Program-made: the position numbers and the translations under genes | Source: Candidatus Poribacteria bacterium | GTDB taxonomy: Bacteria > Poribacteria > WGA-4E > WGA-3G | Length of the DNA: 64,000 nt | Direction: 5' to 3' | Assembly: GCA_965205015.1 (NCBI GenBank) | Contig: OZ242029.1 | Span: 3,424,001 to 3,488,000, forward strand | The notes under the pieces: generated by a model | Databases searched by the model: none | The model's input: only the letters and a program-made list of their open reading frames with translations | Told to the model about the DNA's origin: nothing | In this document: piece after piece, positions 1,534 through 27,777 of the stretch | How positions within the stretch are numbered: position 1 is the first letter of the stretch | Layout: the number at the start of each line of letters is the position of its first letter

Positions 1534-1584
1534 CAAAATCTTCTGCGTGGAAACCTCGTGCTTTAGCCCGGGGTGGAAACGCAG
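1534..1584 (+). mobile_element. IS200/IS605-family left end (subterminal hairpin)
   Basis: TTCAT|CAAAATCTT-CTGCGT-GGAAA-CCTCGTGC-TTTA-GCCCGGGG-TGGAA-ACGCAG. Same architecture and same upstream TTCAT|CAAA as the tnpB element left end ending at 26199. Confidence 0.7.
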
Positions 1585-2267
1585 TTTTCTTTTGTCAATT
1601 ACCGTAGGTTTTGTAAATATAATTTGCTTTTTACCTGGAAATTTTGTATAATAGTTACCTATGCCATTTATATTTTATATGATGAATAATGAAAAAGTGA
1701 CCTAAGTAACTATAGAGTATTAGAAAGAGGATACGTTTGAGTTGCGATTTTCGCAACCGACACAACGACAAAAGAGAAAACATTGAGATATTTCATGGAT
1801 TTACAACTACTGACTTAAAAGCGATGGTGCCGTTTGAAAAACAACACCTTCGCCAACCGAAAAAAACCTTGATAGACTTGAACATTTTACCTGAGGAACG
1901 CTCATGACGAAGTGCAGTTTACCCTTTGAATTAAAAAGATCCCTGAAGATGCGTGCGGATGTGCGCGCCCCGATGAGAGGGAGTGGCTGCTGCGTTCTGA
2001 GACGTTCTGTCGATCCTCAAATAGCTAAAAACCCCCCCCGAATTCTCCACAAACGATAAGTGTTTTATTTCATAAGACGATCCTGACGGTCCTGCATCGG
2101 ACTGTCTTCGCGCCCGCAGGTGGTTCTGTTTTACACAGAGTCCCCATTGCGGGCTATTTTTGTTGCATCGGGTCTCTCCCGATGTGTTGGACACTCCAAT
2201 ACAACCACAGGCACGACCTCTTGTCAATATGGCTGTGTAAGTCGTGTTAAAAAGGAGATTTAGAAAA

Positions 2268-3566
2268 ATGTTTTCAAGAATACTGACTTTTAGCATCTTA
2301 TCCGTTTTTTGCGTATTCACTGCCATTTCTTATGTATACGCGCACGAGGCTACTGGTGAGGGTAGTAGTAATCCTCATTGGCACAATCTTTGTCATGATC
2401 ATGGTGGATATAGCCATTGTCATTTGGCTGTAGTGCACGGAAAAGTAGAGAATGGTGTTTATTCTGAGGTTTACAAGCCTGGCTTTAACCACGCTGATGA
2501 ACATAACAATAATCCCAGTAAGATTCTGCGGGTCGGTAGGCCACCCGAAGAAAACGTGCATACGCATACCTTTGTTGAGTCCCACCAACATGACAACTAC
2601 GAGTGGCACGCACATGAAGATACACACGATCACCCAGATTCGGAGCACCCGCACCCGCCTAACCACCCTTTTCATGTCACCCACGCTGATGTAGGTATTC
2701 GCACAGATACTACTGTGGATGAGCAACCTGTGAACCAGCCTACAGGGAATCAACCTACAGGGAATCAACCTACAGGGAATCAACCTACAGGGAATCAACC
2801 TACGGGTACTCAACCCACAACGGTAGTGGAGAGTGGAACATCTGAAGGGACATCCGAAGCAGGTGATAGCGGAACCCCTGTTGACACAAGCACAGAACAA
2901 AATTTCCTCAGAGCCCAACAAAAATACGGAACACCACTTGAGGGGACACCAGAAACACAACCCAAGCCTCAACCTTTATTACCCATACGCATCACAGAGT
3001 ATATGGTCAGAGATTGGTCTGCTGGAATTGGTGGATTACCACAGTGGATTGAGGTGTATAACCCCAACACCGAGGCAGTCAACCTCAAAGGTTGGACGTT
3101 CCAATATGCCACCCGACGGTCAGCCAACGCTCCCCATAAAGTCCACACACTGACGCTCGCTGGAACACAGGACGGGTTCAGCATAGCGGGAGGCGGCGTC
3201 GCGATCCTATCAACCCGAAAAGTTCCGGCATGGCGATTTTCCGGTATTGGAGCCTCCCAGGTCTACAACTTGAGCATAGACAACGTCCTCAAACGCGGGT
3301 GGGTGTTGACGGATGCCGATGGCAAGGAGATTCAGCGTCTCGGTAGGGAGGCTTTTAGTGCGTTCGGGGATCCGGTGGCACCGCTCCATCAGAACAAGGC
3401 GCGTGTCTCGCATCAGGTGCTCCCGAGCGAGTCGCCTCCGGAGGTTTATTACTATGGACATCGGGAAGACATCGGGTCTCCCGGGTTCTACGAGCAACCG
3501 GCGCCGGCGGCACCAAGCGCGGTCAGACGGAAACAGATCGGCACTTGGGCAGCCTTGAAAAAATAA
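2268..3566 (+). CDS. Secreted His-rich protein with QPTGN repeats, lamin-tail-like domain and C-terminal TWAALK motif
   Basis: AAGGAG RBS, signal peptide, very His-rich N-terminal region, ITEYM..QWIEVYNPNTEAVNLKGW (LTD-like), ends GTWAALKK. Confidence 0.8.
   Translation: MFSRILTFSILSVFCVFTAISYVYAHEATGEGSSNPHWHNLCHDHGGYSHCHLAVVHGKVENGVYSEVYKPGFNHADEHNNNPSKILRVGRPPEENVHTHTFVESHQHDNYEWHAHEDTHDHPDSEHPHPPNHPFHVTHADVGIRTDTTVDEQPVNQPTGNQPTGNQPTGNQPTGNQPTGTQPTTVVESGTSEGTSEAGDSGTPVDTSTEQNFLRAQQKYGTPLEGTPETQPKPQPLLPIRITEYMVRDWSAGIGGLPQWIEVYNPNTEAVNLKGWTFQYATRRSANAPHKVHTLTLAGTQDGFSIAGGGVAILSTRKVPAWRFSGIGASQVYNLSIDNVLKRGWVLTDADGKEIQRLGREAFSAFGDPVAPLHQNKARVSHQVLPSESPPEVYYYGHREDIGSPGFYEQPAPAAPSAVRRKQIGTWAALKK
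2736..2819 (+). repeat. 15-bp coding tandem repeat (CAACCTACAGGGAAT, about 5.5 copies) encoding QPTGN
   Basis: Three perfect units at 2751-2795 with degenerate flanking units. Confidence 0.95.
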
Positions 3567-24315: not shown

Positions 24316-24675
24316 ATGGAGGACCCAACGAAAACAAAGAACCTTCACCCCTGAGTTTAAAGGCCAAATTGTTCTTGAGGCACTTAGCGGTGAAACTTCG
24401 CAAGCGGAACTGGGTCGTCGACACAACCTGAGTGAAGATCAACTCTCGAAGTGGAAGCAGCAAGTCGTTGAAAACGTAGGATCTTTGTTTGCTTCCACAG
24501 AGCAGCAGTCCAGCGAGGCAGCTGAGCGGATCGCACACCTTGAACAGCTCGTTGGGCGGTTGACTGTGGCACTCGACATTCAAAAAAAAGCAGCGACGTG
24601 GTTAGACCAAAACTGACGGAGCAGCAAGAAATAGTTGAGGCACTCCGGACGGATTATTCGGTTCGACAGATATGT
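24316..24675 (+). pseudogene. IS3 transposase orfA/orfB remnant
   Basis: AAAGGAGG then ATG 24316 is one base out of frame with RTQRKQRTFTPEFKGQIVLEAL...QLSKWK. OrfB is truncated. Confidence 0.8.
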
Positions 24676-24850
24676 AAGGAGGATATACGCGTCAAGGCAC
24701 CCAAACCTAAAGGATTGGGCTTGTGCTTCGTAGCAGTCAGCCTTCCGAGGAAGGGACTTACATCTGCTCCACAGAGGGACCCAAGGCAGCCCTCAAGATG
24801 TTTATCGCAGCGTTTACGTCCCTATCGTGGTGTGAACCACACTCACGACA
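24671..24850 (-). ncRNA. Predicted TnpB omega/reRNA (scaffold over the tnpB 3' end and right end; guide is the flank 24690-24671)
   Basis: Established TnpB architecture; hairpins CTTCC-TC-GGAAG and CCCAA-TCCTTTAGGT-TTGGG. The 5' boundary is approximate. Confidence 0.55.
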
Positions 24851-25978
24851 CGTCCACTGCCGATCCGAAAGTGAAAGATTTTCGGTGTGATGCCCGCAAT
24901 CGGAGCAAGGTTTTGTAGTAGGCGTCCACTGCCCAACTTGAGAGAACTCACGATTATGTTTAAAACACTTGAACCTCAGTATCTCAACAAACTGGTAAAA
25001 AGCAAGGTCAGAGACTTTGCGTCCCCACAGACGTTTCATCCCATCAAGGTTCAGCGTCTCGGTGACAATGTGGTCAAACCGACGGCAGAGGTCGGTCGCA
25101 CGTTTGTAGTGCCAATCCCTGCGTTGGTTGGCGATCTTACGATAAAGCCGTGCGAGTTCACGGACAGCACGCCACCAATTGTTAGAACCTTTCTGCTTTC
25201 GGCTGACTGCCTTGTTAAGTTTTCGGAGTTGGTTCAAGGCGTTTTTCAAAGGTTGCGGATGGTGGATCTTCTCACCGGTGCTCAGGGTCAGATAGGTGTC
25301 CATACCGAAGTCTATCCCTACGCTCTTACCTGTAGCGGACATCACTTCTTTGGATTTACTATCTGTCACAACATAGAGCCACAATGTTCCGACAGCATCC
25401 TGACCGATTTGAATATACTTGACGTTCCCCTCCCACTCGCGATGGTGGTGATACAAGATATTTCTGCGGACAAACACAAACTTCTGTTTCTCTATATCCC
25501 ACTCTTTGAAGGAGAGACAGACAGTGCCTCTCGGAACTTTAGACGGTTTATCGTCATCCTTAGGGGGGACTTCAAAGACCTTGTACCCTGTTTGGAACTT
25601 CGCAGAGCGGTATTTGCTACGTTTTTTGAACTTCGGAGGTCCCACGCGCCTGCCACGTCTGCCGTTTTCAATCCAATCAAAGAACCGCTCATACCCGATA
25701 TGGATACGGATAATCACAGCGTCAAGCGTATCACGGGGGATCCATGCCCAATGCTTATGGGTGCGTTCGAGCAACTTCGTCAGATGCGGTTGCAGGCGAA
25801 AACGACCCGCGTATTTTCCATAGATACGGTAATATCGCTTCTCCAAAGCAAGGAAGTGGTTATGCACATCACCCAAGTCATCAAGCATGTTGCCGACGCG
25901 CATGTTTTGCGAGTGTTCGCGTATTTGGTATTTGTAGGTGCGACGCACACGCTTTTGTTTTCGCTTTCGTTTTTTCAT
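24758..25978 (-). CDS. tnpB: RNA-guided endonuclease TnpB
   Basis: RuvC-I GIDFG, RuvC-II VTETLN, zinc finger CSDC/CREC, RuvC-III DRDVNAAINI. Catalytic D/E/D residues are intact. Confidence 0.95.
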   Translation of the reverse strand: MKKRKRKQKRVRRTYKYQIREHSQNMRVGNMLDDLGDVHNHFLALEKRYYRIYGKYAGRFRLQPHLTKLLERTHKHWAWIPRDTLDAVIIRIHIGYERFFDWIENGRRGRRVGPPKFKKRSKYRSAKFQTGYKVFEVPPKDDDKPSKVPRGTVCLSFKEWDIEKQKFVFVRRNILYHHHREWEGNVKYIQIGQDAVGTLWLYVVTDSKSKEVMSATGKSVGIDFGMDTYLTLSTGEKIHHPQPLKNALNQLRKLNKAVSRKQKGSNNWWRAVRELARLYRKIANQRRDWHYKRATDLCRRFDHIVTETLNLDGMKRLWGRKVSDLAFYQFVEILRFKCFKHNREFSQVGQWTPTTKPCSDCGHHTENLSLSDRQWTCRECGSHHDRDVNAAINILRAALGPSVEQM

Positions 25979-25980
25979 AG

Positions 25981-26077
25981 GATGTCACGTATCACGCCTT
26001 TAACCCCTGATAAGTGGGTGGGACCGACACGTAACCTTGCGGTTACGCTTATCATGTCGGTCCAACGTGATACATCT
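25981..26077 (-). ncRNA. Structured 5' leader of tnpB with a predicted kissing/pseudoknot pairing
   Basis: GTATCACGTT/GGCGTGATAC, GGACCGACAT/GTGTCGGTCC, GTAACC-GCAA-GGTTAC, and TGATAAG/CTTATCA. Confidence 0.65.
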
Positions 26078-26106
26078 ATCAAACCATAATTTATTGAAAA
26101 TGTCAA
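26078..26106 (-). promoter_or_regulatory. tnpB promoter
   Basis: TTGACA-N17-TTTGAT with an extended TG. Confidence 0.6.
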
Positions 26107-26199
26107 GTGTTTTTTCAAAAAAAAACGCTATGGTCTAACACATGAGGGCGGATTTTCCTCCCAAGTCTAAAGACTTGGGTTTCCAATCCGTAAACTTTG

Positions 26200-26799
26200 A
26201 TGAAATATGTGCGGTTGTTATTGATTCAATGTGTACTGCTTGTATTGGGATTGGTCGGTTATTGCATTGCTACTGAGATTGGCTTTGAAGCCGAAGACGC
26301 AGATGAAATTGTAGCAATCATGGAAATTTATGAAGATAAGAAAGCTTCAGGCGGTATGTATATATCGGCGGGAAAGGGCGGGGGAGGGCGCCACCCCGGT
26401 AAAGCCGATTTCGTGATTAACGTTAGAACACCCGGTCAGTACACGATGTGGGGGCGGGTGATTGCCCAAGATACGGCGAAGGACTCTTTCCATGTCACAG
26501 TCGATCAGAAGAAAAGTCCACAACCGGGTGATGCCAACATGATCTGGGATACAGGTCAGCATCAGGAGTGGACGTGGTCAAAAGTAAAATGGCGCGAAAA
26601 GAATCCGTTGACCTTTGATCTGAAACCGGGGAAACATACCGTTACATTTTGGTCTAGGGAAGGCGATACCCGTTTGGATGCCGTTTACATGGCAATAGAT
26701 CCCGGCGCTGTCCCCAAACTACCGAATGAAATTGAGGGTTTTGCTGTGCATCCCCGGAATCGCTTAACGACAACTTGGGCGGCGCTAAAAAATCGGTGA
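26200..26799 (+). CDS. Secreted carbohydrate-binding-like beta-sandwich protein with C-terminal LTTTWAALK
   Basis: Signal peptide, FEAED, YTMWGRV, DSFHV, REGDTRLD. Its RBS (24676-24682) is separated from it by the tnpB element. Confidence 0.8.
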   Translation: MKYVRLLLIQCVLLVLGLVGYCIATEIGFEAEDADEIVAIMEIYEDKKASGGMYISAGKGGGGRHPGKADFVINVRTPGQYTMWGRVIAQDTAKDSFHVTVDQKKSPQPGDANMIWDTGQHQEWTWSKVKWREKNPLTFDLKPGKHTVTFWSREGDTRLDAVYMAIDPGAVPKLPNEIEGFAVHPRNRLTTTWAALKNR

Positions 26800-27228
26800 T
26801 GAAGGTCAACACATGATAGGTTACCATTGGTTCGCCTATCCTAACGCGGCAGAAGGGCTATACGCCAAAGTGTTCGCACGTGTCAACATGTTCGGTAGCG
26901 ACGAGGAGACCTGTCTGGTGTGTATCAAGCAAGGCAGGCTTTCGGTAACGCGCCAAGTCTGGGACGATGTCGTCTCGGTTCATGATAAACAGTTGCTGGT
27001 GTGTTTATAGTGGGAACCATTTCTGAGTCTCGATGTTCTTTTCAGCTCTACCAACGATGCCTGTATAGCCCGCAATTTCGGCAGGGACGGGATGTGCAAA
27101 TAGATCCGTAGGAGTTTACCTCGCCTGACGCTATCCACGTCCTCACAACCTTCCAAAATTTCTCGATATGTCAAGTAAGTCATGTTGAATTTTCCTAATC
27201 TGTATGAGGTAAGTATCCCTGAAACCGG

Positions 27229-27777
27229 TTATGGCTTTTGCATAACGAGATCGCTGTAGGAAACAGCAATTGGGGCCACAACATCTAAATGAAGTACGTC
27301 TTTGACGTGTTGATGCTCATCTATCGCCTCGGCTTCGGTTTGTCCCTGAAACACCGTCTCCAATTCGATAAATTGTCCTAAATTAGCAACCGTATCGAGG
27401 TGGATGCGGGTGTGATTGAACATCCAGACGTCCCGTTGTTTTTTTACAATTGTTTTGACCCCGAGTGCAACAGTTAGCAAGCCTTTGAGGGACCCCGGAT
27501 CGGCAATTTCACAGAGTTGGTATTGACTGTAGCGGGAGCCATCTTGGTTTGGACGCTCATAATAAATGAGCCATCCCTCAGACCATCCTTTCGCTTCGCG
27601 CAACTTGAGCCGCGGCTCAGATGTTTCTGATCCCAAAGCGTCTTTTACGTGCGTCACATGGAAATACGTATCAATTTGGTGTACGGTTTCATGATGTGTC
27701 GCATTTAAGGTAGCCAACCGTGGGTACAGTCCGTCAAGCGACTGAAACTGTGCTTTGAATTCTAAATTTTTTGCCAT
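27229..27777 (-). CDS. CYTH-domain class IV adenylate cyclase (CyaB-like)
   Basis: NLEFK (ExK), QIDTYF, RLKLRE, RIHLDTV..LGQFIELE, SYSDL. Confidence 0.85.
   Translation of the reverse strand: MAKNLEFKAQFQSLDGLYPRLATLNATHHETVHQIDTYFHVTHVKDALGSETSEPRLKLREAKGWSEGWLIYYERPNQDGSRYSQYQLCEIADPGSLKGLLTVALGVKTIVKKQRDVWMFNHTRIHLDTVANLGQFIELETVFQGQTEAEAIDEHQHVKDVLHLDVVAPIAVSYSDLVMQKP

Follow-up and report, generated by a model that had tools for sequence, protein, structure and literature searches.

Why would a transposon sit precisely between a ribosome-binding site and its start codon, and does such a position reflect a dedicated choice of target? The question is raised by a sponge-symbiont genome, that of a Candidatus Poribacteria bacterium (GenBank assembly GCA_965205015.1), from which we analysed a window of 64,000 nt (contig OZ242029.1, positions 3,424,001 to 3,488,000; "the window" always means this whole stretch). 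Here, a TnpB-only transposon of the IS200/IS605 type separates the two signals of a gene for a secreted protein (Table 1): on the plus strand, AAGGAGG (24676-24682) and the 8-nt spacer ATATACGC (24683-24690) stand before the element, and the ATG stands behind it, at 26200. With a probability that we put at roughly 85%, this is an ordinary TnpB-only (IS1341-type) IS200/IS605 member of a family abundant in Candidatus Poribacteria, and its hits at start codons are a by-product.

An earlier note on this DNA, made from the letters alone, had predicted that deletion of 24691-26199 would restore a ribosome-binding site, 8 nt and an ATG, and had proposed to look for this empty junction in related metagenome-assembled genomes (MAGs). 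In agreement with this prediction, the uninterrupted site, TAAGGAGGATATACGC followed directly by ATGAAATAT and with no target duplication, is present in four related Poribacteria genomes and in one metagenome run. When the flanks in the window were joined by script and aligned to the loci from other genomes, they matched without gaps across the junction over 614 nt in three of them (98.2% identity in L081, 97.6% in L082 and 97.2% in L083) and over 321 nt, up to the contig end, in the fourth (97.8% in L084); the gene at 26200-26799 matches all four from its first base. The junction sequence is ...CCTAAGGAGGATATACGCATGAAATAT... in 4/4 of these genomes, all of which carry ...CAAACCTAAGGAGGATATACGCATGAAATAT... 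across it. Because the four empty sites agree, the target is TTCAT (ATGAA on the strand of the gene), nothing was duplicated and both boundaries of the element are exact; being present in the empty sites, TTCAT (26200-26204) belongs to the flank and not to the element. A contig of the sponge-metagenome run X6, ending ...CAAACCTAAGGAGGATATACGC directly before 26200, represents the empty allele, and run X1 has a contig that spans the occupied left junction with zero mismatches; an X4 contig (24541-24720) with 30 nt on the element side was not counted as bridging. An independent start-codon insertion of the same family (L040) has its own empty counterpart, with CCATAAGGAGACTGAATTA and ATGAAAAAACCC contiguous in 2 other genomes.

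The interrupted gene is itself well preserved. Its product has no Pfam match and 15 homologues, and those at 94-97% identity equal it in length (199 aa), in the starting Met and in having a signal-peptide-like N-terminus. Since the homologues begin at this Met, ATG 26200 is the true start and AAGGAGG-8 nt its ribosome-binding site. We found no Shine-Dalgarno-like motif in the 12 nt of the left end that now precede the ATG, and a promoter consensus scan of 24500-26400 on both strands returned 0 promoter-like sites; translation of the gene is therefore probably lost or much reduced.

Table 1. Features of the window discussed in the text.
Feature	Coordinates	Strand	Basis
Complete non-autonomous IS200/IS605-type (TnpB-only) element, 1509 bp	24691..26199	-	Shared ends and empty sites
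Left end, nested subterminal hairpin CGGATT..AATCCG around CCCAAGTC-TTTA-GACTTGGG	26137..26199	-	Fold, covariance model, stem covariation over 69 copies
tnpB, 406 aa, RuvC triad D223, E307, D387 and zinc ribbon	24758..25978	-	Pfam, PDB alignment
Right end with predicted omega-RNA scaffold, from the 3' end of tnpB up to the boundary	24691..24920	-	Consensus fold of 37 copies
Right-end flank, putative 16-nt guide GCGUAUAUCCUCCUUA	24675..24690	-	Flank shared with empty sites
Target/putative target-adjacent motif 5'-TTCAT (element strand); ATGAA (Met-Lys) in the flanking gene	26200..26204	-	Flank logo
Intact gene, cut off from its ribosome-binding site; product a 199-aa secreted protein of unknown function	26200..26799	+	Homologues
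Solo left end of the TnpB family, after TTCAT (1530-1534)	1535..1600	+	Covariance model R1
Truncated IS3-family copy: orfA HTH_Tnp_1, A-run slippery site, first ~25 orfB codons	24303..24679	+	Pfam

The element encodes a TnpB, carries subterminal hairpins and inserted after a fixed 5' motif with no duplication of the target, which makes it an IS200/IS605 member of the IS1341 (TnpB-only) type. A family search with one genome per prokaryote species returned 112 relatives, and the best 80, at 67-94% amino acid identity, were kept; 79 of these lie in MAGs titled Poribacteria and one in an "uncultured bacterium". By strict pattern, 79/81 sequences share a right end closing with ...GGGTGCCTTGAC at the boundary, in the form ...GGGTGC(C/T)(T/A)TGAC at a constant distance from tnpB (L007 also has it, with one mismatch; L006 is truncated), and the DNA beyond is unrelated from copy to copy. 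As the right end is shared while everything beyond it differs, 24691 is the right boundary. Both ends could be identified in 74 sequences; seven loci lacking one recognisable end were dropped (L004, L006, L007, L022, L030, L039 and L066), as were L074, which is the same insertion as L069, and L002 and L057, whose flanks are short.

Both ends are built alike. Upstream of the tnpB ATG, a 221-nt stretch opens with the nested hairpin, and a 67-nt stretch downstream of the stop has its own hairpin of that design near its end, before TGCCTTGAC. The two subterminal hairpins share the design CCCAA..TTTA..TTGGG and covary across copies, those of the left end showing compensatory substitutions in their stems, and there are no terminal inverted repeats. 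The motif GGAAA stands 5' of the inner stem of the left hairpin. A covariance model (R1), trained on 69 left ends from other genomes with the window excluded, scored the left end of the element in the window at 74.1 bits (26137-26198, minus strand) and also matched its right-end hairpin (24698-24719) at 19.8 bits. Two further structural details were observed. In 4 of ~74 copies (L013, L018, L058 and L078, at ~2300), the left end has its inner hairpin, together with the GGAGA/AGGAA shoulders, as the exact reverse complement, flipped between the arms of the outer stem. In addition, a second long hairpin, GGACCGACA...TGTCGGTCC, lies in the leader of tnpB, past the left end and ahead of the ATG (26020-26075, minus strand); it is kept at the same place with altered stems in L026, L001 and other copies, and may be a regulatory structure.

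We then asked how constant the target is. In the 5' flank logo of 71 copies, positions -1 to -5 are T in 71, A in 71, C in 68, T in 67 and T in 42 flanks; the invariant core is TCAT (at -4 to -1 in 64/71), with T favoured at -5 and A/T at -6 and -7. As pentamers, 72 other copies follow TTCAT (41), ATCAT (10), CTCAT (8), GTCAT (6), CCCAT (3), TTTAT (2), GCCAT (1) or GTTAT (1). Positions -5 and beyond belong to the flank, since they vary even among near-identical copies within one genome. The TTCAT that the earlier note had read before the left end, and proposed as both target and target-adjacent motif (TAM), is thus found at the site itself and in the logo and stands as a target sequence, but it is not invariant: TCAT is almost always there and the outer T often is not. 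The orthologues of the gene hit by L040, in L139 and L140, start with ATGCAA instead of ATGAAA, so that the TCAT target is gone at that start codon.

The left-end motif varies together with the target. Copies with GGGGA follow CCAT in 4/4 cases, as against 0/68 of the others, and CTCAT occurs only with GGAGA (8/48 vs 0/12 GGAAA copies); the copy in the window is of the GGAAA type and follows ATATTTCAT. Read antiparallel, the left-end G-A/G-A/G-A would pair with target positions -3 to -6, as predicted by the IS608 model, in which the target is chosen by DNA-DNA pairing. By analogy, and from the covariation in 4 copies, the target is probably chosen here through base pairing with the left-end motif GG(A/G)(A/G)A.

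A second, independent witness for the target lies elsewhere in the window. The earlier note had also pointed to an independent left end after TTCAT at 1534, and the R1 model finds it at full length (1535-1596, plus strand; 54.1 bits, E 6.5e-18), preceded by GTTTTCAT, whereas the next full-length match stays below 10 bits. This match is far beyond chance. By BLAST of the element against the window it appears weakly (71% over 52 nt, E 1.2), and it is the covariance model that establishes it. The window holds no second tnpB or right-end motif, and neither follows the solo left end. A 73-nt copy, 99% identical, follows TTTCAT in another genome and an unrelated context (L136, 1501-1573); with 66-73 nt and one hairpin, the solo left end may represent a remnant or else a tiny mobile derivative.

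The nuclease of the element looks intact, as judged from its sequence: its catalytic triad is complete, as expected of an active TnpB and not of a nuclease-dead repressor of the TldR type, and a CxxC...CxxC ribbon is present. Its Pfam matches, both above the cut-off, are OrfB_IS605 (PF01385; 9.2e-25, 87.6 bits) and Cas12f1-like_TNB (PF07282; 6.5e-20, 71.5 bits). Among solved structures, the AI-designed nuclease 9yyg ranked first overall (E 1.5e-41), and the closest natural relatives are the ISDra2 TnpB structures 8bf8, 8exa and 8h1j (E about 9e-39, residues 215-399). D223, E307 and D387 align with the acidic triad of ISDra2 TnpB, which we take to be D191, E278 and D361.

At the right end, the consensus of 37 copies folds the last 230 nt into a structure of 38 pairs, 12 of them with compensatory changes, and the structure stops at the boundary. 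No Rfam family matched 24500-26400 at E up to 1. By comparison with the work on ISDra2 and the ISGst elements, we infer that this structure is an omega-RNA scaffold. The 16 nt of right-end flank are the only portion of the upstream flank common to the window and the empty sites, and they contain the Shine-Dalgarno sequence of the gene, AAGGAGG. Taking (T)TCAT as the predicted TAM and GCGUAUAUCCUCCUUA as the putative guide would be sound, given established TnpB biology and a scaffold that ends at the boundary. The presumed guide would carry CCUCC because the flank is the Shine-Dalgarno region of the gene.

These observations suggest the following sequence of events. The element inserted 3' of TTCAT with no duplication of the target and, as TTCAT is ATGAA on the other strand, landed directly before the start codon, moving the Shine-Dalgarno sequence 1.5 kb away and most likely leaving the gene at 26200 poorly translated or not translated at all. 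By analogy with ISDra2 and the ISGst elements, RNA from the scaffold would run ~16 nt into the flank and so include the guide. TnpB guided in this way would cut TTCAT plus the guide sequence, which is the empty site, and the element would be copied back after its loss. The hits at start codons would then be a by-product of the target sequence and of purifying selection against insertions inside genes.

To put the last step in numbers, we classified the insertion sites of the 69 copies whose flanks reach 600 nt or more, after rebuilding each empty site by script. An ATG was called start-like if it opens 100 codons or more and has no more than 50 open codons upstream, a position was called intragenic if it lies inside an open frame of at least 150 codons, and the remaining sites were called intergenic; as controls we took every other TCAT site of the same 380 kb (n=2478). 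Fifteen copies lie exactly at a start-like ATG (in nine cases the right flank holds a Shine-Dalgarno motif), 31 are intergenic and 23 intragenic, compared with 163, 399 and 1916 control sites, respectively. Start-like sites are enriched relative to all other sites (15/69 vs 163/2478; odds ratio 3.9, p 5e-5), as are those with a Shine-Dalgarno motif (9/69 vs 68/2478; odds ratio 5.3, p 1.7e-4). Relative to intragenic sites, the odds ratio is 7.8 for the TCAT-flanked copies (14:21 vs 163:1916, p 2.4e-7) and 6-8 across motifs, whereas relative to intergenic sites it is 1.18 (15:31 vs 163:399, p 0.62) and, with longer motifs, 1.3-1.9, none significant. Because the ratio of start-like to intergenic insertions matches the available sites, the enrichment does not reflect dedicated targeting. 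Insertions at start codons are thus common, but not above the supply of non-coding TCAT sites, and that one copy in five splits a ribosome-binding site from its ATG is what the target sequence and the loss of intragenic insertions predict.

The earlier note had further suggested a preference for genes of secreted proteins. With a crude score, a hydrophobic N-terminus was found in 9/15 interrupted start-site genes vs 48/163 control TCAT starts (p 0.02), but under a strict start definition the bias vanishes (4/9 vs 33/68). Judged by eye from their N-termini, the products of the interrupted genes range from a sigma factor and a UvrD-like helicase to oxidoreductase-like proteins. The evidence for a bias toward secreted proteins is weak.

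Several points weigh against regarding the start-codon hits as a mere by-product of an ordinary mobile element. Start-like sites are retained ~6-8x better than intragenic ones, which such a model does not explain if expression is abolished; start-site copies persist as well as intergenic ones, and in its pure form the model leaves this unexplained. The flanking gene is still intact and its loss of expression is presumed; likewise, the omega-RNA, the length of its guide and the activity of TnpB are predicted by analogy. The source of the transposase is a further difficulty. Excision of IS200/IS605 elements is seamless and requires a Y1 (HUH) TnpA, so that a TnpB-only element would have to be mobilised in trans. 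There is no TnpA in the window (tblastn with 34 Poribacteria TnpA proteins), nor inside any of the 80 related copies. Y1 transposase genes (PF01797) are present in 9/9 related genomes searched, with 2-15 matches each, but none of 36 Y1 loci from these nine genomes carries the left end of the TnpB family. Eight Y1 loci adjoin a TnpB 45-47% identical to that in the window, with right ends of the same design (GAAGCACAAGCCCC-hairpin-GGGTACC..TGAC), yet these tnpA-tnpB relatives follow TTTAAC/TTAAC-like flanks and their left end is different. Finally, genome G005, the source of L067-L080, has at least 10 near-identical copies and only two weak or partial Y1 matches (80.6 and 43.7 bits).

The lack of a tnpA in the copies and in the window could mean that the family has lost its transposase and that the element is an immobile relic, a fixed insertion that permanently inactivated a dispensable gene. 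Such a reading would also fit a region that is a patchwork of insertion sequence fragments, and the occurrence of copies with damaged or inverted left ends (7/81 excluded for lacking one end). We nevertheless consider it unlikely. The tnpB frame is open with its catalytic triad and both ends are complete, and the flanking gene, 97% identical to 199-aa homologues, is undamaged. Moreover, several genomes contain numerous nearly identical copies in different places, a pattern that requires recent mobility, and Y1 genes are there in every related genome searched.

A quite different proposal, and one that we regard as clearly improbable, is that the family preferentially targets the start codons of secreted or surface proteins and acts as a reversible off-switch, with precise excision restoring the ribosome-binding site and ATG and TnpB homing re-installing the element. 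In its fuller form, in which TnpA makes the translational switch reversible for dispensable surface or secreted proteins and an omega-RNA guide with an anti-Shine-Dalgarno sequence polices the restored site, it is no easier to accept. It would draw on the number of copies at start-like ATGs, on the 6-8x better retention there than inside genes, on the loosely defined excess of hydrophobic N-termini, on the A/T-rich positions -6 and -7 of the logo, which fit ATGAAAA (Met-Lys) starts, and on seamless excision. These points are outweighed by a start:intergenic ratio that equals site availability, by the disappearance of the secreted bias under the strict definition, by the 23/69 copies inside long open frames and by the failure to find any TnpA with these ends, which the reversible silencing that the earlier note had in mind would need. 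In four runs, no contig skips 24691-26199 in the strain background, and none runs from 24690 straight into 26200 with the IS3 remnant to its left; short contigs cannot show rare variants, however, and because the runs consist of them this lack is not evidence against excision.

Less probable again is a near-neutral insertion with the gene still expressed, for example because a transcript reading out of or through the left end is translated independently of a Shine-Dalgarno sequence. Insertions at start sites persist no less well than intergenic ones, and all start-site genes keep long open frames (an open frame being part of the start-site definition, and so not independent), but the native site has a strong AAGGAGG, and neither a Shine-Dalgarno-like motif in the 12 nt before the ATG nor a promoter-like site in 24500-26400 was found.

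Regarding the element as an ordinary member of its group also agrees with what is known of related systems. ISDra2 of Deinococcus radiodurans encodes a TnpB of the same protein family, with RuvC triad and zinc ribbon aligned, although only the C-terminal half of the TnpB in the window aligns well. Work of Karvelis and of Altae-Tran, both in 2021, is said to have established that elements of the ISDra2 type insert 3' of a 5-nt motif that equals the TAM, with an omega-RNA at the right end and a flank-derived guide. Unlike the element in the window, which lacks tnpA and uses (T)TCAT, ISDra2 has a tnpA gene and the motif TTGAT. IS608 of Helicobacter pylori likewise has subterminal hairpins at both ends and a motif 5' of the hairpin foot that covaries with the target; cleavage lies 19 nt 5' of its left hairpin and 10 nt 3' of its right one, compared with ~20 and 9 nt in the window. 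IS608, however, targets TTAC and encodes TnpA, and in the window family the pairing is deduced from covariation in 4 copies. Among IS1341-type elements and PATEs, tnpB alone between IS200/IS605-type ends is a shared arrangement, and the 66-nt solo left end resembles a protein-less derivative; PATEs reportedly carry both ends (Dyall-Smith, 2011), whereas the solo unit at 1535-1600 has one hairpin only. As to the motif, a preprint by Meers et al. on Geobacillus elements describes TTCAT for ISGst5 (IscB) and TTTAT for ISGst2 (TnpB2, a TnpB) as experimentally shown TAMs that match the native flanks (bioRxiv 10.1101/2023.03.14.532601). TTCAT is thus the shown TAM of ISGst5, and TTTAT occurs in 2/72 copies of the window family as well; the nuclease of ISGst5, however, is IscB and not TnpB, its host, Geobacillus stearothermophilus, is a Firmicute, and the likeness is one of motif. 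Our literature search returned no paper on TnpB in Poribacteria, and none on a start-codon bias of such elements turned up among the papers listed.

The surroundings of the element have a history of their own. The IS3 remnant is fused to the upstream region of the gene 11-16 nt from the right end of the TnpB element, in a microhomology of 4-5 nt, T(G/A)AGG, at 24674-24679, and homology of the window to the four empty-site genomes begins just 16 nt upstream of the ATG. This IS3-family copy is multi-copy in related genomes, where full copies run on as ...CAGATCTG followed by CGAGACG. In this single case, the distance from breakpoint to right end is close to the length of a TnpB guide, and TnpB is reported to cut near such a distance; the breakpoint could be due to chance or be a repair scar. 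On the other side, the gene at 26200-26799 and ~230 nt of upstream DNA are 97-98% identical in four other species-level genomes, whereas the neighbouring DNA (27012-27700) is 87-89% identical and the contexts differ, which suggests recent transfer or hitch-hiking of a secreted-protein gene cassette. Two secreted proteins of the window also end alike, in ...TTTWAALKNR (26770-26796) and ...IGTWAALKK (3540-3563); LxTTWAxLK is conserved at the C-terminus in 10/10 aligned homologues and may be a sorting signal.

The finding does not change what is known of how such elements work. Its value lies in a clean natural example in which target/TAM, boundaries and guide are directly readable, because exact empty sites exist in sister genomes. 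To this it adds a dataset of 72 flanks, including a subfamily whose target (CCAT) has changed together with the left-end motif, and, from an uncultured phylum, a compact TnpB candidate of 406 aa with TTCAT/TCAT as its predicted TAM. Finally, the coincidence of target and start codon illustrates how a TAM can influence the places at which a transposon causes damage, which is relevant to gene inactivation in symbiont genomes rich in insertion sequences.

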